From NCBI GenBank assembly GCA_013333695.2, contig JABCOH020000013.1:4623-68622 (forward strand): a DNA stretch of 64,000 nt, given 5' to 3'. The DNA is from Candidatus Saccharimonadota bacterium. GTDB lineage: Bacteria > Patescibacteriota > Saccharimonadia > Saccharimonadales > Saccharimonadaceae. The position numbers and the translations under genes were made by a program. Positions 19,533 to 28,734 of the stretch are shown piece after piece (position 1 is the stretch's first letter; every line of letters starts with the position of its first letter). The notes below the pieces were generated by a model. It was not told the DNA's origin and ran no database searches. It saw only the letters and a list, made by a program, of their open reading frames with translations.

Positions 19533-20408
19533 ATGTATAGTGCAATTTCTCATAATAAGCGAAACACCGTGCTGATCATGGCAGTGTTTGTGGCGATTAT
19601 TGGCGTAATCGGTGTACTGGTCGGTATGTATCTACGGAACTATTCATTGTCGTTGATCATTGTCGGTTGTGCGCTGCTTTATGCGTGGTTACAATATTAT
19701 ATTGCTGGTAAATTGGCCATGGCGATGAGCGGTGCGCAGCAGATTGAAAAGAAGGATGCGCCGGAGCTGTGGCGAGTAGTAGAAAACCTCGCGATTGCTT
19801 CCGGCATGCCGATGCCAAAAGTCTACATTATTGACGATCCAGCGCCAAACGCGTTTGCGACGGGCCGCGATCCAAAGCACGCTATCGTCGGTGCGACTAC
19901 TGGGCTGCTAGAAATTATGGATAAGCGCGAGCTGGAGGCGGTGATGGCGCACGAGATGAGCCACGTGCGTAACTACGATATTCGCGTTAGTATGATCGCC
20001 TTTGGGTTGGTGAGTGCTATCGGGTTGCTTGCTGATATCGCACTCCGGATGATGATTTATGGCGATGATGATGACGGGGATACTAGTCCGGTTGTCTACG
20101 TCGTGGGTATTATAGTAGTAATCTTGGCACCGATTTTAGCAACGATTACGCAACTGGCAGTCAGTCGCCAGCGCGAGTATCTTGCGGATGCCTCGGGCGC
20201 GCTATTGACTCGCGACTCGGAGGGGCTGGCGATGGCGCTGGAGAAGTTACAAAGTTATGGTCGGCCAATGCGCAAGCAGAGTACCTCAACAGCAAACTTG
20301 TTTATGAATAATCCGCTGCGCCCGGGCTTTTTCTCAAAGTTATTTAGCACCCATCCGCCGCTAGAAGATCGAATCGCACGCCTGCGAAGTAATGCAACGA
20401 AGATGTAA
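19533..20408 (+). CDS. htpX: M48 zinc metalloprotease HtpX
   Basis: PNAFATG, HEMSH (HExxH), SRQREYLAD, FSTHP. Confidence 0.95.
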   Translation: MYSAISHNKRNTVLIMAVFVAIIGVIGVLVGMYLRNYSLSLIIVGCALLYAWLQYYIAGKLAMAMSGAQQIEKKDAPELWRVVENLAIASGMPMPKVYIIDDPAPNAFATGRDPKHAIVGATTGLLEIMDKRELEAVMAHEMSHVRNYDIRVSMIAFGLVSAIGLLADIALRMMIYGDDDDGDTSPVVYVVGIIVVILAPILATITQLAVSRQREYLADASGALLTRDSEGLAMALEKLQSYGRPMRKQSTSTANLFMNNPLRPGFFSKLFSTHPPLEDRIARLRSNATKM

Positions 20409-23550: not shown

Positions 23551-23955
23551 ATGACACAGCAACCACATCGCGCCCTCGCCATCAAACCCGCCGACACGAT
23601 TGTGTTTACCGCCATGTCCAAGAAATATTTTTACATGAGATTTTTCGTAACGAAATTTGCGCTCGACCAGGGTGTTGTGCCGATTAATCCATTTGCCAGT
23701 TTTGATTATTTTTTGCTCGACGCGGTGGAGCGTGACACGGTGCGGCGCGCTAACAATACGCTGGTGGCGCGCGCTGATGAACTCTGGGTATTTGGCGATA
23801 TTGCTGATGGCGTGCGGGCGGAAGTAGTCCAAGCCTGGCAGCAACATAAAACCGTCCGATTTTTTGCGTTTCGCGATGATAAGCATATTTACGAAGTTGA
23901 GATTGGCGAATTGATTTATGAAGATGGCGTTGAAACATTAACCCAACGGAGGTAA
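23551..23955 (+). CDS. Hypothetical protein, nucleoside 2-deoxyribosyltransferase-like fold (DUF4406-like)
   Basis: VVPINP...ARADELWVFGDIADGVRAE pattern. Confidence 0.55.
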   Translation: MTQQPHRALAIKPADTIVFTAMSKKYFYMRFFVTKFALDQGVVPINPFASFDYFLLDAVERDTVRRANNTLVARADELWVFGDIADGVRAEVVQAWQQHKTVRFFAFRDDKHIYEVEIGELIYEDGVETLTQRR

Positions 23956-23959
23956 CTAG

Positions 23960-24364
23960 ATGATCCGATTTTACTTACAAAAATTAGTTCGCGACAAAGT
24001 GGTAAAAAAGTGCCTGGATGATCCAGAATTTTTGCATACGGAGTATAAGACATTAGACAAACAAGAGTTTCGCCGCGAGCTGCTCCGCAAGGTTCACGAG
24101 GAGGCAGATGAGATTCCGCTGGGTGATAATCAGCGCGATGAATCGCTGAAAGAATTAGCTGATTTGCAGGAAGTCGTTGACGCGCTGCGCCAAGCCTTTG
24201 GCTTTTCTATAGAGCAAGTTCAAGAAGAAATGGCGCGTAAAAAGCAGGATAATGGTGGCTTTGATAATCGGCACTATATTGAATACAATGATTTTACGGA
24301 TAACAGTAGATGGGTGGAAATACTGCGTGCCCAGCCAGAGAAGTATCGTGAAGAAAAGAGCTAA
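23960..24364 (+). CDS. All-alpha NTP pyrophosphohydrolase (MazG/HisE-like)
   Basis: KLVRDK, KVHEEADE, ELADLQEV, KKQDNGGF motifs. Confidence 0.88.
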   Translation: MIRFYLQKLVRDKVVKKCLDDPEFLHTEYKTLDKQEFRRELLRKVHEEADEIPLGDNQRDESLKELADLQEVVDALRQAFGFSIEQVQEEMARKKQDNGGFDNRHYIEYNDFTDNSRWVEILRAQPEKYREEKS

Positions 24365-24373
24365 TATAGGGAT

Positions 24374-24922
24374 ATGGCAAAAAACGTTACGTTTATCACT
24401 GGCAATCAACACAAAGCAGATGCTCTAGCGCGCGTGCTAGATTTGCCGCTAGCACACCGGGCAGTTGATCTAACGGAAATTCAATCAACGAGCTTGGAAG
24501 AGATTGTTGAGCATAAGGTTCGCCAGGCGTATATAGTCGCTAAATGTCCGGTTTTGGTCGAGGATGTGGCGCTCGGGTTTACGGCGCTGGGTGGACTGCC
24601 AGGCCCGTTTATCAAGTTTTTTGTCGAGGCACCGAACGGTTTAGAGAATCTCTGTCGGATGCTTGATGGTTTTGACGACCGATCGGCGGTGGCGGCGTGT
24701 GTGTTTGGCTACTACGATGGTGAGCAGATCAAATTGTTCCGCGCTGAACTTGGTGGTGTCATCGCCAAGCATCCTGTGGGCAACGGCGGCTTTGGTTGGG
24801 ATAAAATATTTTGTCCGGATGGCTATGGTGGCAAAACGCGCGCCGAATTAACACCGGATAAGGATGCTGGCACTTTCAAGCCAATTGATACCGTCCGTAA
24901 ATTTCTCACCACACTTGAATAA
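24374..24922 (+). CDS. Ham1/ITPase-family non-canonical purine NTP pyrophosphatase
   Basis: FITGNQHK, EIQ, VLVED, LPGPFIK, FGWDKIF. Confidence 0.92.
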   Translation: MAKNVTFITGNQHKADALARVLDLPLAHRAVDLTEIQSTSLEEIVEHKVRQAYIVAKCPVLVEDVALGFTALGGLPGPFIKFFVEAPNGLENLCRMLDGFDDRSAVAACVFGYYDGEQIKLFRAELGGVIAKHPVGNGGFGWDKIFCPDGYGGKTRAELTPDKDAGTFKPIDTVRKFLTTLE

Positions 24923-24942
24923 ATACATGCTATTAGTTATAT

Positions 24943-25293
24943 ATGAAAGTGATCTATCTAGCTGGCAAAAATCTCGACAGGGCGAATCGCGTGGCGGCAA
25001 CTTTAGAGGCTTCCGGCTATAGCATTCCGTGCAATTGGTATTATAATTACAAAGACGACGAGACAAATTTCGGCCCAGAAGATGAGGTTCAGGCCATTCG
25101 CACTGCCGATGTTTTGGTGTATCTATGGGAATCCGACCAGGAGAGCGCGCGCTATGAAGTTGGCATGGCGATAGCGCTTGGTAAACCAGTGGTCGTTGTT
25201 CATGATAACCCGAAATGGTTTTTACAACTACCAAATGTTCATGCGGTCTCACGGGATGAGGATATTATAAAGGCGCTGAGTGAGGTTGGTTGA
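24943..25293 (+). CDS. Nucleoside 2-deoxyribosyltransferase-like protein
   Basis: IYLAG, DEVQAIRTADVLV, YEVGMAIALGKPV. Confidence 0.8.
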   Translation: MKVIYLAGKNLDRANRVAATLEASGYSIPCNWYYNYKDDETNFGPEDEVQAIRTADVLVYLWESDQESARYEVGMAIALGKPVVVVHDNPKWFLQLPNVHAVSRDEDIIKALSEVG

Positions 25294-25361
25294 CGAAGGA
25301 TTCCCTATGGCAAAACCAGTGCTACGGCTACACTAAAATAAGAAATGCTATAATAAACCCC

Positions 25362-25931
25362 ATGACAAAACACATCAATCTCGTCACTGGTAACCCACGT
25401 AAAATCGAGGAAGCAACGGCCACGCTGAGTCAATACGACATAGCGGTGGAGATCATTAATCTCGATATTGATGAGATCCAGCACCTTGATCCGCTAAAAA
25501 TTACCGAGGCTAAGGTTCGGGCAGCGTACGAGAAGGTTGGTGAGCCGGTTGTTGTCAACGATAGTAATTGGGAAGTGCCCGCGCTCGGCGGCTTTCCGGG
25601 TGGCTACATGAAGGATATCGCGCACTGGTTGACGCCCGAGGATTTTTTGGCTTTGCTACGCGACAAAGATGATTGGCAGATTATCCTCCATGATATTGTT
25701 GCTTATTACGACGGGCATAATCTACAGACGTTTATCTTTGATCAGCCGGGGAAGTTTGTCGCTCCGCCGCGTGGCAAGAGTGGTGCGTCGGTTAACAAGA
25801 TTATTACGATGGATGGTAGTAACGGCCTGACGATGTCCGAGGTGTTTGATCGGCGCGATCAAGGCCTAGCGGTCAGAACCGACACGCTGCGGCAATGGCA
25901 TCAATTTGCGCAGTGGTATGTCGCGCAGTAG
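25362..25931 (+). CDS. Second, divergent Ham1/ITPase-family protein
   Basis: LVTGNPRK, DEIQ, VVVNDS, ALGGFPGGYMK; ATG 25362 lies 7 nt after TGCTATAAT. Confidence 0.85.
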   Translation: MTKHINLVTGNPRKIEEATATLSQYDIAVEIINLDIDEIQHLDPLKITEAKVRAAYEKVGEPVVVNDSNWEVPALGGFPGGYMKDIAHWLTPEDFLALLRDKDDWQIILHDIVAYYDGHNLQTFIFDQPGKFVAPPRGKSGASVNKIITMDGSNGLTMSEVFDRRDQGLAVRTDTLRQWHQFAQWYVAQ

Positions 25932-25939
25932 GCTTGTTG

Positions 25940-26782
25940 CTAGGAATGCGCTCGCACCATACTGGCAGTAATAAGCGTGGCGCCAGTCACATCATCAACG
26001 CTGGAGCCGCGAGATAAGTCGCTGATCGGTCGGGCAAAACCCTGCAAGATCGGCCCGTACGCATGACCGCCAGCCAGGTGTTCAGCTAGCTTGTAAGCGA
26101 TATTACCAGAATCAAGATCAGGAAACACAAGGACATTAGCCCTGCCAGCGACCGGACTGTCCGGTGATTTTTTCTGGCCGATAGCCGGGACAATTGCCGC
26201 GTCTAATTGCAGTTCACCGTCAATGAGTATATCGGGCCGTTCTGTTTTGACGAGTTGTAGGGCCTGGGTGACGAGCTCGACACTATCACCGCCAGCGCTG
26301 CCTTTTGTTGAGTATGACAGCATAGCCACGTGCGGCTCCCAACCAAGTGACGCCGCACTATCCGCTGAAGTCATGGCAATCGCCGCCAGCTGCTCGGCGT
26401 TTGGCTGAATGTTCATGCCGCAGTCAGCAAAGAATAACAAACCGTGTTCGCCGCCCTGAAACTGCGGGATGTCTATCACGAAAAAGCTGGATGCATATCG
26501 AACATTGGGTGCCAGTCCAATAATTTTCAGTCCAGCTCGGAGCACGTCTTTCGTTGGATGATCAATTCCAGCCACCATAACGTCAGCCTTGCCGCTCGTT
26601 AGCATCGTTGCACCGCGACTAATAGCGTCCTCTTCCCCATCAAGCAGCACCGGCTGTACCGTACCGCTTTCTTCTAGTGCGCGCGCCGCCTGCTGGATGA
26701 TGTGATTATCGCCCTCAGGAAATACCACGCGCGGTGGATGTAGGGCTAAGGTTTTTGCTAAGTCTCGTATATGCTGATTCAT
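25940..26782 (-). CDS. pta: Phosphate acetyltransferase (short form)
   Basis: VVFPEG, FADC, LSYSTKGS, DGELQLDAA, FPDLDSGNIAYK, DLSRG. Confidence 0.93.
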   Translation of the reverse strand: MNQHIRDLAKTLALHPPRVVFPEGDNHIIQQAARALEESGTVQPVLLDGEEDAISRGATMLTSGKADVMVAGIDHPTKDVLRAGLKIIGLAPNVRYASSFFVIDIPQFQGGEHGLLFFADCGMNIQPNAEQLAAIAMTSADSAASLGWEPHVAMLSYSTKGSAGGDSVELVTQALQLVKTERPDILIDGELQLDAAIVPAIGQKKSPDSPVAGRANVLVFPDLDSGNIAYKLAEHLAGGHAYGPILQGFARPISDLSRGSSVDDVTGATLITASMVRAHS

Positions 26783-26802
26783 AAATATAGTATAATGGAA
26801 CT
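26783..26802. promoter_or_regulatory. 20-bp bidirectional leaderless promoter between pta and the GNAT gene
   Basis: TATAAT (+, 26791-26796) and TATACT (-, 26794-26789), each 6 nt from an ATG. Confidence 0.7.
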
Positions 26803-27240
26803 ATGAACGAATTGACAATTGAACGCGCATCCCACATCACCGAATCTGATGTGGCAGACATCACTAACCTCATCGCGGCACTCACTAGTAAGTCGCACCC
26901 AGCTGATGCTGAGTTATTGCAGCAGATTATCGACTCGCCAAGTCACGTATTGCTGTTGGCGCGGTTATCGGGCAAAGTTGTTGGCATGGCAACGGTGGCG
27001 CTATTGCTTGGGCCGGCTGCTGGGCGCAAGATCTACCTCGACGATTTTGTGACCGACCCGAATGTACAGGGTAAGGGTGTTGGTTCTCGACTCTGGGACG
27101 CTGTCATTGACTGGGGCCGCGAGCAGGGTGCTCAAAAACTGGAGTTTACATCGCGCCCAGAACGCGAAGCGGCGCAGCGATTCTACTTGAAAAAAGGTGC
27201 GGTCGTGCGTAGCACTAATGCCTTCGCCAAACAATTGTAG
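26803..27240 (+). CDS. GNAT family N-acetyltransferase
   Basis: Acetyl-CoA motif QGKGVG, AQRFY. Confidence 0.93.
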   Translation: MNELTIERASHITESDVADITNLIAALTSKSHPADAELLQQIIDSPSHVLLLARLSGKVVGMATVALLLGPAAGRKIYLDDFVTDPNVQGKGVGSRLWDAVIDWGREQGAQKLEFTSRPEREAAQRFYLKKGAVVRSTNAFAKQL

Positions 27241-27260
27241 GTAAATATTGATCAAACCCC

Positions 27261-27289
27261 TTGTGCTTTTTAACAAAAAAGCGCATAAT
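27261..27289 (+). promoter_or_regulatory. Promoter of candidate small RNA
   Basis: TTGTGC-17 nt-CATAAT, ending 6 nt before the stem start. Confidence 0.6.
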
Positions 27290-27295
27290 ATCGTC

Positions 27296-27385
27296 AGAGC
27301 TGGTACGCATAGGGGCGTTTCCTATGCTGCCATCCAAAACAAACACACGAAATTGCCCCGGGTGGGCGCGTAACAGCTCTTTTTT
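27296..27385 (+). ncRNA. Candidate structured small RNA of unknown family
   Basis: Terminal stem AGAGCTGgTACGC/GCGTAaCAGCTCT, inner stem, T-tail, dedicated promoter, no recognisable ORF. Confidence 0.6.
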
Positions 27386-27432
27386 ATTCGTCAAGTGGCG
27401 CGTTTGACAGCGCTTATGGTATGATAAAGGGG

Positions 27433-28734
27433 ATGTTCAAGAAGTCGTTTGAGAAAAAAATGATACGCTATGTCCGGCAATTTTTTGCCGACCATGCTGA
27501 TGTCAAGTTGATCGCAGTGACCGGGAGCGCTGGTAAAACGAGTGCCAAAACAGCGATCGCTACCGTGCTATCGCAGCAGTTTGCTGTCGCCATGCACGCT
27601 GCTGAGCCAACGTCGCACTTACAAACCCTTCTACAGATTATGGGCGTGCGCTACCCCGAGAATCGTCCGGAGGAGAAGTGGGGATTTTGGCACCGCCGCA
27701 AGATGATGCGAGCTGTCAAAAAGCGTGCTCGCGCCGAGCATCCTGAAGCTCATGTCATCGTCCAAGAATTCAGCCCGATGCAGCCTGGTTTTAATGCGTG
27801 GTTTCAGCAGGTTATTTTGCCGGACATGGCCGTTGTGACGTCAGTCACCTCTGGCCGCATGCGGGTTGAACATACCGTCGAAGAGGTAGCTGGCGAGATG
27901 CTAACGTTGGCGAATAATGCTCGCTTTGCGGCTATTAATCGTGATGATATCGACGGTCGATTTGCCGCATTTTTGACAAATCCCCAGATGACGACATATG
28001 GTACCAGCGAGGTCGCTGAGTATTATTTTGAGCAGCAAGATTTCTCGCTGGAACACGGCTACGTCGGCAAGATTATCGGCCCGGAATATCCTGATGGCAT
28101 CGCAGTGACGCTGCCGCTACTTGGTGAACATAATCTGCGACCAGCCGTCGTGGCGATGCTCGCCGGGGTGCGGATGGGTATGACGAAAGAATTGATTGAA
28201 AAGGGCTTGAGCCAGTTAGGCTCGCTGCCGGGTCGGATGCAAGTGCTTCGCGGTGCGGATCAGACGATTTTGATTGATGATAGCTATAGCTCATCACCAC
28301 TGACAGCATTGTCAGCACTACAAACGCTGTACAGTCTCGAGGTGCCGCAGCGTATCGTGGTGTTTGGTAATATGAATGGGCTACGCAAGGATACGCAGGC
28401 CGGTCATGCGAAGCTCGGCGCTCAGTGTTCGCCAGACGAGCTGGATTGGGTAGTGACCGTTGGCGAGATGGCTAATCAATACCTGGCGCCGGTAGCACGT
28501 CGTCGCGGCTGTCAGGTTAAGGAGTGTCGTGATGCGCTGATGGCTGGCGGATTCGTGCGCGAAAAACTTCATGCGGGTGGCGTGGCTCTCTTCAAAGGTT
28601 CAAGTGGCGGTGTTTGGCTCGAGGAAGCGATTAAAATTAACCTACACAGCACTGAGGATGAGAAAAAATTGGTGCGCCAGTCACCTGACTGGATTAAGCG
28701 AAAAAATGAATTTTTCTCGCGCTTTCGCGGATAG
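27433..28734 (+). CDS. Mur ligase family protein (divergent MurF-like)
   Basis: AVTGSAGKT P-loop, GEHN, LPGR, LIDDSY, LFKGS; ATG 27433 follows TGGTATGAT. Confidence 0.85.
   Translation: MFKKSFEKKMIRYVRQFFADHADVKLIAVTGSAGKTSAKTAIATVLSQQFAVAMHAAEPTSHLQTLLQIMGVRYPENRPEEKWGFWHRRKMMRAVKKRARAEHPEAHVIVQEFSPMQPGFNAWFQQVILPDMAVVTSVTSGRMRVEHTVEEVAGEMLTLANNARFAAINRDDIDGRFAAFLTNPQMTTYGTSEVAEYYFEQQDFSLEHGYVGKIIGPEYPDGIAVTLPLLGEHNLRPAVVAMLAGVRMGMTKELIEKGLSQLGSLPGRMQVLRGADQTILIDDSYSSSPLTALSALQTLYSLEVPQRIVVFGNMNGLRKDTQAGHAKLGAQCSPDELDWVVTVGEMANQYLAPVARRRGCQVKECRDALMAGGFVREKLHAGGVALFKGSSGGVWLEEAIKINLHSTEDEKKLVRQSPDWIKRKNEFFSRFRG

Follow-up and report, generated by a model that had tools for sequence, protein, structure and literature searches.

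The stretch of DNA analysed here (the window) comprises 64,000 nucleotides of a Candidatus Saccharimonadota genome, and between a GNAT gene and a Mur ligase gene it carries a predicted small RNA. A sequence-only reading had proposed at this place a stand-alone RNA with the promoter TTGTGC-17-CATAAT, paired ends followed by a T run, and two mutually exclusive folds; the promoter, the paired ends and their coordinates were all verified. The features of the locus are as follows, in positions of the window.

26803-27240: GNAT gene, upstream of the RNA
27261-27266, + strand: -35-like hexamer TTGTGC, read from the sequence
27284-27289, + strand: -10-like hexamer CATAAT, with a 17-nt spacer from the -35
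about 27296, + strand: predicted transcription start, inferred from the promoter position
27296-27385, + strand: predicted small RNA of about 85-90 nt, from the model match and homologues
27296-27308, + strand: 5' strand of the closing stem P1, in which 9 of 10 pairs are changed on both sides
27301-27332, + strand: 5' hairpin of fold B, a predicted alternative structure
27312-27321, + strand: 5' strand of P2 (fold A), GGGGCGTTTC, with 6 of 6 pairs changed on both sides
27336-27345, + strand: loop motif rich in A, AAAACAAACA, of which the window RNA has one full copy, predicted unpaired
27349-27359, + strand: strand M, GAAATTGCCCC, the 3' strand of P2 and the alternative partner of the GGGUGGGC segment (fold B)
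27360-27367, + strand: GGGUGGGC, which holds the near-invariant GGUGGG (27361-27366)
27368-27380, + strand: 3' strand of P1, pairing with 27296-27308
27380-27385, + strand: U-run (T6) immediately 3' of P1
27417-27425, + strand: separate extended -10 of the Mur ligase, TG-n-TATGAT, 7 nt before the in-frame ATG at 27433
27421-28734: Mur ligase ORF with Mur_ligase_M/C domains, downstream of the RNA

The ends of P1 pair in 12 of 13 positions in the window copy, with one G·A, and the two strands of P2 enclose a 27-nt loop, which together give the rod (fold A) that had been described; both hairpins of the proposed fold B also exist in the sequence. Taken alone the window sequence is unconvincing: its folding z is -1.64, and a consensus scan of the window for promoters and terminators listed neither the promoter nor the terminator of the RNA. 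It is more than chance because it is conserved. The covariance model R2 has its sole match in the window at 27297-27379 (E 4.5e-11), a copy that was in the training set. The gene ligA, named from homologous ORFs, lies 3.8 kb before the RNA. The space between the two contains a nucleotide-housekeeping cluster (23551-26782) made up of DUF7768, an ORF of 134 aa without a name, a pair of Ham1-family genes, one gene like nucleoside deoxyribosyltransferases and one for a phosphate acetyltransferase. Leaderless-looking genes are many in the window (for example at 19533, 26782, 27433, 35220 and 40800), and by a strict pattern a -10-like hexamer stands 4-9 nt before the ATG in 10 of its 54 long ORFs. 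One orphan pilin-like gene at about 12500, apparently leaderless, is without GGUGGG.

In order to follow the distribution of the RNA we searched relatives at several levels. The nearest genome (G001) carries the locus at 98% identity, a DNA search detected it in 143 of the 201 genomes of the family, and a first covariance model matched 88 of 150 genomes of the order, once each. The second model, R2, built from 77 sequences, found a single copy in 38 of 38 sampled family genomes and in 98 of 150 Saccharimonadales genomes at E ≤ 1e-4, a tally that was counted from the match table, takes in one unpublished genome (G522), which bears on nothing else here, and includes many matches that are training sequences; the conservation on which the earlier proposal depended is present. 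A pattern scan of GTDB returned at least 120 stretches, and the 80 listed with titles are mostly Saccharibacteria or Saccharimonadales. From 100 scored loci, namely 99 of these stretches and one viral match, 95 pass the model, the five failures being four non-Saccharibacteria records and the viral match. Viral copies were rejected more generally, as none of 12 pattern matches was convincing. Two true copies of the RNA lie on contigs of 4.5 and 9 kb from genomes labelled Bifidobacteriaceae and Magnetospirillaceae (L256, L274), which are probably misbinned Saccharibacteria DNA.

Beyond the Saccharimonadales nothing convincing was found among the genomes searched. The phylum-wide pattern search matched 6 of 301 genomes, all from the family and none outside it, and R2 gave outside the order, in the phylum sample, only matches with E ≥ 9.8e-4 that have no promoter/terminator layout. 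A match at class level (G650, E 1.4e-7) was discarded, as it lacks an evident promoter and is possibly coding sequence. No RNA was found in the stretches downstream of ligA in other orders (15 and 20 stretches). A different element turned up in just one genus of another order among the ligA-downstream stretches examined (L188:2944-3076 in G657; L507 in G708): a hairpin of 40 nt (-23 kcal/mol) whose ends pair perfectly and whose loop is CAAGGGGGAA, accompanied by its own promoter-like pair and a U-run.

The homologues are 74-118 nt long. A divergent one that was located via synteny (L172) keeps GGGUGGG and both stems and has lost the A-rich loop. In two further copies (L204 in G553, L205 in G504) unrelated sequence has replaced the 5' half, with the A motifs, strand M and GGUGGG preserved; these copies were possibly disrupted by insertion.

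Homologues also share the layout of an independent transcription unit. A promoter of the form TTG...-16-18-YAnnnT precedes 72 of 99 of them, as it does 2.8% of random positions. Behind 92 of 99 stands a terminator, which random positions have in 20% of cases; it is a U-run directly after P1 in 16 and a separate hairpin with U-run in 76. Judged from these sequence features and their conservation, the RNA gene is very probably real. The Mur ligase of the window has its own -10, and with a terminator behind nearly all homologues the RNA does not look like its leader, which agrees with the sequence-only reading, as does the stand-alone and uncatalogued character of the RNA. The gene upstream is often ligA (21 of the 48 ORFs tested, from 97), a tRNA-Ala gene is present in 72 of 106 loci on either strand, and the downstream proteins vary, the Mur ligase accounting for 6 of 31 tested (from 94). 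Because ligA and tRNA-Ala adjoin also where the RNA was not found, the site is probably a mere landing place.

Comparison with known RNA families gave no assignment. Rfam 15 has no match at E ≤ 10 within 26800-27800, so that the check proposed with the original observation revealed no known family; at gathering score the window contains three tRNAs and nothing else. Five homologous loci gave nothing above gathering score at the RNA, the best being Thr_leader with 27.2 of 55 bits. The partner-gene and housekeeping-RNA tests cover five genomes each. SRP RNA (RF00169) and Ffh (PF02978) were detected in 0 of 5, and a piece of RNase P RNA or tmRNA was rejected, as complete genes for both were found elsewhere in 5 of 5. 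Y RNA was set aside with its Ro60/TROVE partner (PF05731) in 0 of 5 genomes, a CrcZ-type Hfq sponge with Hfq (PF17209) in 0 of 5, and membership in the CsrB/RsmZ family with CsrA (PF02599) in 0 of 5 and with no conserved GGA in alignments A3 and A4. T-box RNAs have a stem I with specifier, an antiterminator with a 7-nt bulge and a downstream amino-acid gene; a T-box was rejected on the lack of an Rfam match, of T-box parts in the alignments and of any relation among the downstream genes.

Fold A is, by comparison of the homologous sequences, the conserved fold, as P1 and P2 both covary. In a MAFFT alignment 15 of 16 pairs show changes on both sides, a score that 0 of 500 shuffles reach and that lies far above that of slid controls. 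In 95 further sequences, which were chosen by a pattern fixing GGUGGGC and parts of P1 and of the A motif and not P2, and whose alignment was fitted to the covariance model, P2 is 97.4% paired with 6 of 6 pairs covarying. The cognate P2 duplex has -11.9 kcal/mol compared to -8.2 kcal/mol for non-cognate strands (0 of 5000 permutations). RNAalifold recovered P1 alone from alignment A3, because P2 is misaligned there between lineages. The two stems have about 10 bp and 6 bp, and the internal loop has anywhere between about 1 and 10 nt on its 5' side.

Two motifs stand out in this frame. AAAYAAAM (consensus AAAAYAAAMA) occurs in 1-3 copies in 89 of 100 homologues within a loop that is predicted to be unpaired. 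GGUGGG is present in 98 of 100, the other two having GGUGAG, while adjoining stem positions vary, and the hexamer is preceded by a G in 88 of 100 RNAs and in most pilin leaders. In fold A GGUGGG is unpaired; ViennaRNA pairs part of it in about half of the homologues.

The case for the second fold is different. For the window copy the constrained energies are -27.6 kcal/mol for fold A and -28.9 kcal/mol for fold B, and the unconstrained minimum of -29.5 kcal/mol belongs to a third fold. ViennaRNA prefers fold A in 69 of 100 and 59 of 95 homologues, and a local helix on GGUGGG in 12 of 100 and 24 of 95. A helix of at least 5 bp hiding GGUG can form in 76 of 83 non-family homologues (null 49.7 ± 4.0), and its sole covarying pair (4 of 8 versus 0 of 38) reached 0 of 4 in a held-out set. 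Thus, from the covariation test suggested for both folds, fold A emerged with covarying stems and fold B with a pair that does not recur. Conformational switching is possible according to these folding models.

The GGUGGG motif also occurs at the start of pilus genes, a link that like the neighbouring RRM gene described below was beyond what could be seen in the window. Three weak secondary matches of the model (L158, L208, L210) are leaders of pilin-like genes. Across most of the order's genomes, a major-type type IV pilin gene has GGUGGG between its Shine-Dalgarno position and its start codon; this gene codes for about 150 aa, has its own promoter and an A-rich leader, and directly follows pilC in the mapped loci. 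The pattern GGTGGG-N2-16-ATG..GGNTTYAC, which includes the pilin GFT codons, was found in 112 of 150 genomes of the order, usually once, with some matches that are not pilin starts and with mostly 0-1 matches per genome in backwards controls. An open search with purine5-GGTGGG-N3-12-ATG in 36 genomes gave 62 matches, 27 being pilin starts (in 26 genomes, counted from the listing) and 35 others, compared with 23 in the backwards control; of 15 of the others that were examined, two are pilT (TIGR01420), three more are long ORFs and the remaining ten are short frames. A metagenome scan yielded 36 pilT stretches, 32 of them distinct, and in all 32 the motif is followed at 2-15 nt by an in-frame ATG, numbers that count motif matches and are not a fraction of all pilT genes.

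As background, the motif stands at 1 of 439 non-pilin starts in loci chosen independently of it. Within 17 pilus regions, selected around motif matches or pilins, it is found at 10 of 38 pilins, 2 of 7 pilT and 0 of 33 pilB/C/D/M, as well as at 1 of 268 other starts, that one a PilN. All these counts overstate the support, since related genomes are not independent. A purine run (AGGAG/GAAAG) already lies 5' of the motif in 33 of 44 pilin leaders, and the motif is therefore extra to the Shine-Dalgarno sequence there. With its register shifted, the 16S tail GGAUUACCUCCUUU can pair with GGUGGG, and in several pilT leaders GGUGGG is the sole Shine-Dalgarno-like sequence, for which reasons GGUGGG may also be a mere Shine-Dalgarno variant. 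The usual bacterial 16S tail is GGAUCACC; in L137 and L138 it reads GGAUUACC.

The A-rich motif of the RNA is found in relaxed form in 14 of 42 pilin leaders (5.6 ± 2.1 in shuffled ones) and in the strict form AAAYAAAM in only 2 of 42. As a general translation-start signal it was rejected, with just 2 sites in the window. Hairpins that expose GGUGGG are no commoner in the pilin leaders than in shuffles (28 of 44 versus 27.1 ± 1.9), and a genome's having the RNA is no predictor of its having the pilin motif (76 of 97 versus 36 of 52 genomes, p = 0.24).

In G001 the genes pilC and pilD flank the GGUGGG pilin, and GGGGGCA is found at two pilins of the pilin cluster; by layout, as inferred from synteny, the G001 pilins may correspond to PilA1 and PilA2 of TM7x (PMC11623550). 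The major pilin of the pilin cluster has mostly AGGGGGCA in the family, while the RNA keeps GGUGGG. Two classes of major-type pilins and two G-rich start elements, AGGGGGCA and GGUGGG, are seen overall, and the assignment of element to class appears swapped between the family and other families (L368, L375, L397-L422 versus L377, L384, L484). Several GGUGGG pilin leaders (L337, L339, L344, L361-L365) begin with a hairpin-like AGATAC...GATC/TATCT segment that has no Rfam match.

A gene for a protein of about 100 aa with a single RRM (RRM_1, PF00076) is a frequent neighbour of the RNA in the family. The sources name it RNA-binding or cold-inducible RNA-binding protein, and its closest solved relatives are eukaryotic RRMs. 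It stands head-to-head with the RNA in 33 of 54 family loci at a distance of 128-574 nt, and downstream in one more. It adjoins the RNA, again head-to-head, in only 1 of 83 loci of other families and does not adjoin it in the 64-kb window, so that the adjacency may be a single inherited arrangement. In G597 a distance of about 5 kb separates the RRM gene from a pilus locus. GGUGGG and the A motif are both missing from the RRM gene's own leader (0 of 36). Instead, 30 of 36 distinct leaders (L008, L012, L013, L015, L016 and other family loci) contain a conserved GGTCGA(T/A/C)CTGA, often preceded by GTTCAGA, 130-570 nt upstream of the RNA on the opposite strand; the leader has no Rfam match and no predicted consensus fold, and from its sequence conservation the element is a possible autoregulatory site.

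Since GGUGGG is shared by the RNA and the start sites of pilus genes, the RNA may be a decoy. CsrB, CsrC, RsmY and RsmZ repeat an element of their target ribosome-binding sites and thereby titrate CsrA/RsmA. The logic we propose is alike, in that a small RNA would repeat an element of target ribosome-binding sites and titrate its binder, and the element is indeed carried single-stranded in fold A; the RNA differs from CsrB-type decoys in having one GGUGGG and A-rich repeats and not many GGA loops. A CsrB-like decoy for a non-CsrA protein that binds the ribosome sites of pilus genes is the reading we favour, tentatively and at somewhat less than an even chance, and the guess of a protein sponge made from the window alone is the best-fitting class. 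That the RNA touches pilus expression in one way or another appears slightly the more probable case.

In mechanistic terms, a separately transcribed RNA of about 85 nt would use its two stems to hold two single-stranded protein-binding signals, one being the A-rich loop and the other (G)GGUGGG(C), which would lie exposed. The protein would bind the GGUGGG element on pilus mRNAs and set their translation, and the RNA, as a copy of the site, would titrate the protein away and so tune pilus output. More speculatively, re-pairing of strand M in fold B might hide GGUGGG and turn the decoy off. The RRM protein, suggested by gene adjacency, is the best candidate for the titrated protein, though a rather doubtful one. 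Unlikely as a whole is a pilus switch of the Saccharimonadales' own, in which the RRM protein would read GGUGGG at the ribosome sites of major pilin and pilT mRNAs and be titrated by the two-state RNA, so that the making and retracting of pili would follow whether the cell is attached to its host or free.

Without any special link to pili, the RNA could serve the RRM protein, or another binder of A-rich RNA, as its ligand, sponge or scaffold, and its match to the pilus genes would be a coincidence of two G-rich motifs. The head-to-head RRM gene in 33 of 54 family loci, the repeated unpaired A-rich motif and the lack of significant co-occurrence of RNA and pilin motif all fit this explanation, but the match is 7-8 nt long and falls on three different pilus genes, and L172 keeps GGUGGG though its A-rich loop is lost; we consider it unlikely. 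A related case is RbpB of Bacteroides thetaiotaomicron, an RRM-1 protein which according to the accessible portion of PMC11697453 is associated with the FopS/GibS sRNAs controlling surface-related mRNAs and is likewise a bacterial single-RRM protein linked with sRNAs and such mRNAs. The FopS sRNAs are a set of 14 paralogues with a 5' seed for base-pairing with targets, and RbpB counteracts these sRNAs; a sponge role for FopS is not borne out in that portion (PMC11697453). Unlike FopS, the RNA described here is a single-copy closed rod, and its motif has the same sense as the putative target.

Quite unlikely is an antisense repressor in which strand M pairs with the G-rich ribosome-binding site of the major pilin mRNA with the help of a chaperone such as the RRM protein. 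Strand M of the family RNAs does pair better with their own leaders than with those of other families (-12.2 versus -9.4 kcal/mol), as does M of the other families (-12.4 versus -8.4 kcal/mol), but inside lineages cognate pairs gain little over non-cognate ones (p = 0.04, n = 15; p = 0.15, n = 27), and the folded RNA binds with a net mean of -0.4 kcal/mol, no better than to unrelated leaders (median rank 0.5, n = 28). The match of M to the pilin site is explained by the complementarity of M to the RNA's own G-runs, and since the pilus element has the same orientation in the RNA as in the mRNAs, the RNA cannot pair with that element through GGUGGG. Good-looking, hand-picked antisense pairs in G001, G056 and G584 failed to generalise. 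The Arp sRNA of Acinetobacter baumannii, in the portion of PMC12338739 available to us, pairs with pilA's Shine-Dalgarno sequence and its initial 17 codons and offers a likeness as an sRNA acting at a pilA ribosome-binding site; unlike for Arp, pairing is not favoured for the folded RNA here.

The binder could also be the ribosome itself, with GGUGGG as a shifted Shine-Dalgarno sequence and the A-rich loop as an S1 or standby site, so that 30S subunits would be bound for storage or in competition with pilus mRNAs. By inspection the 16S tail permits a 6-pair GGGUGG/UUACCU duplex, a 4-domain S1 is encoded in 5 of 5 genomes and GGUGGG is the sole Shine-Dalgarno candidate in some pilT leaders; however, 3 of the 6 pairs are G-U, no start codon follows GGUGGG in the RNA and other genes including rpsA use ordinary AGGAGG/GGAG sequences. 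A ribosome decoy is very unlikely.

The miniature 6S-like RNA offered in the sequence-only reading, binding sigma70 RNA polymerase, is highly improbable. 6S RNA (RF00013) was detected in none of 5 genomes, and the RNA resembles it as a stand-alone rod with an internal loop flanked by two helices. It has, however, no RF00013 match at E ≤ 10, is with 74-118 nt half as long, has helices of about 10 and 6 bp that are far too short and a loop whose 5' side varies from about 1 to 10 nt, and carries its A-rich part in a terminal loop and not in a central bubble. That the RNA acts in cis, as leader or riboswitch of the gene that follows (Mur ligase or tRNA-Ala), or senses tRNA in the manner of a T-box, has almost nothing left of its probability, as the Mur ligase next downstream in 6 of 31 ORFs tested, tRNA-Ala in 72 of 106 loci and GGGUGG, which resembles the T-box motif, are outweighed by the RNA's own terminator in 92 of 99 homologues, mutually unrelated downstream genes, a tRNA often on the opposite strand, ligA-tRNA-Ala adjacency without the RNA and the lack of any T-box or riboswitch match in Rfam.

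Our literature search, which was thin on subscription journals, found no account of the RNA or of RNA control of these pili. The locus may be the anonymous candidate HMP2_7371 of Fremin and Bhatt 2021, judged by matching taxa and neighbours: as far as the consulted sections of PMC8040213 go, this candidate has 67 bp and 137 instances, mostly from Saccharibacteria, its neighbours GNAT, PTA_PTB, Ham1 and NTP-PPase are like those of the window, and it belongs to a set possibly overlapping coding regions, with one covarying pair and no function stated there. The main text of the TM7x transcriptome paper (PMC10768705) has no mention of sRNA or ncRNA, and the part of PMC8172020 on CPR that was accessible deals with diverged RNase P only. 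According to excerpts of PMC11623550, Saccharibacteria bind hosts, compete and twitch by means of type IV pili, and among their pilus genes those for the two major pilins are expressed most.

In summary, more than 200 homologous sequences, for which Rfam has no model, make this a well-supported ncRNA family even if the pilus link fails. The RNA is kept across the order in genomes of 0.6-1.2 Mb that seemingly do without 6S, SRP, Hfq and CsrA, and its retention in such small genomes suggests an important role. Concrete leads for tests come from the motif that it shares with pilus genes and from the RRM gene next to it, in Saccharibacteria strains that have become amenable to mutation. If the decoy reading is true, the RNA would control the pili that these bacteria use to grip their hosts.
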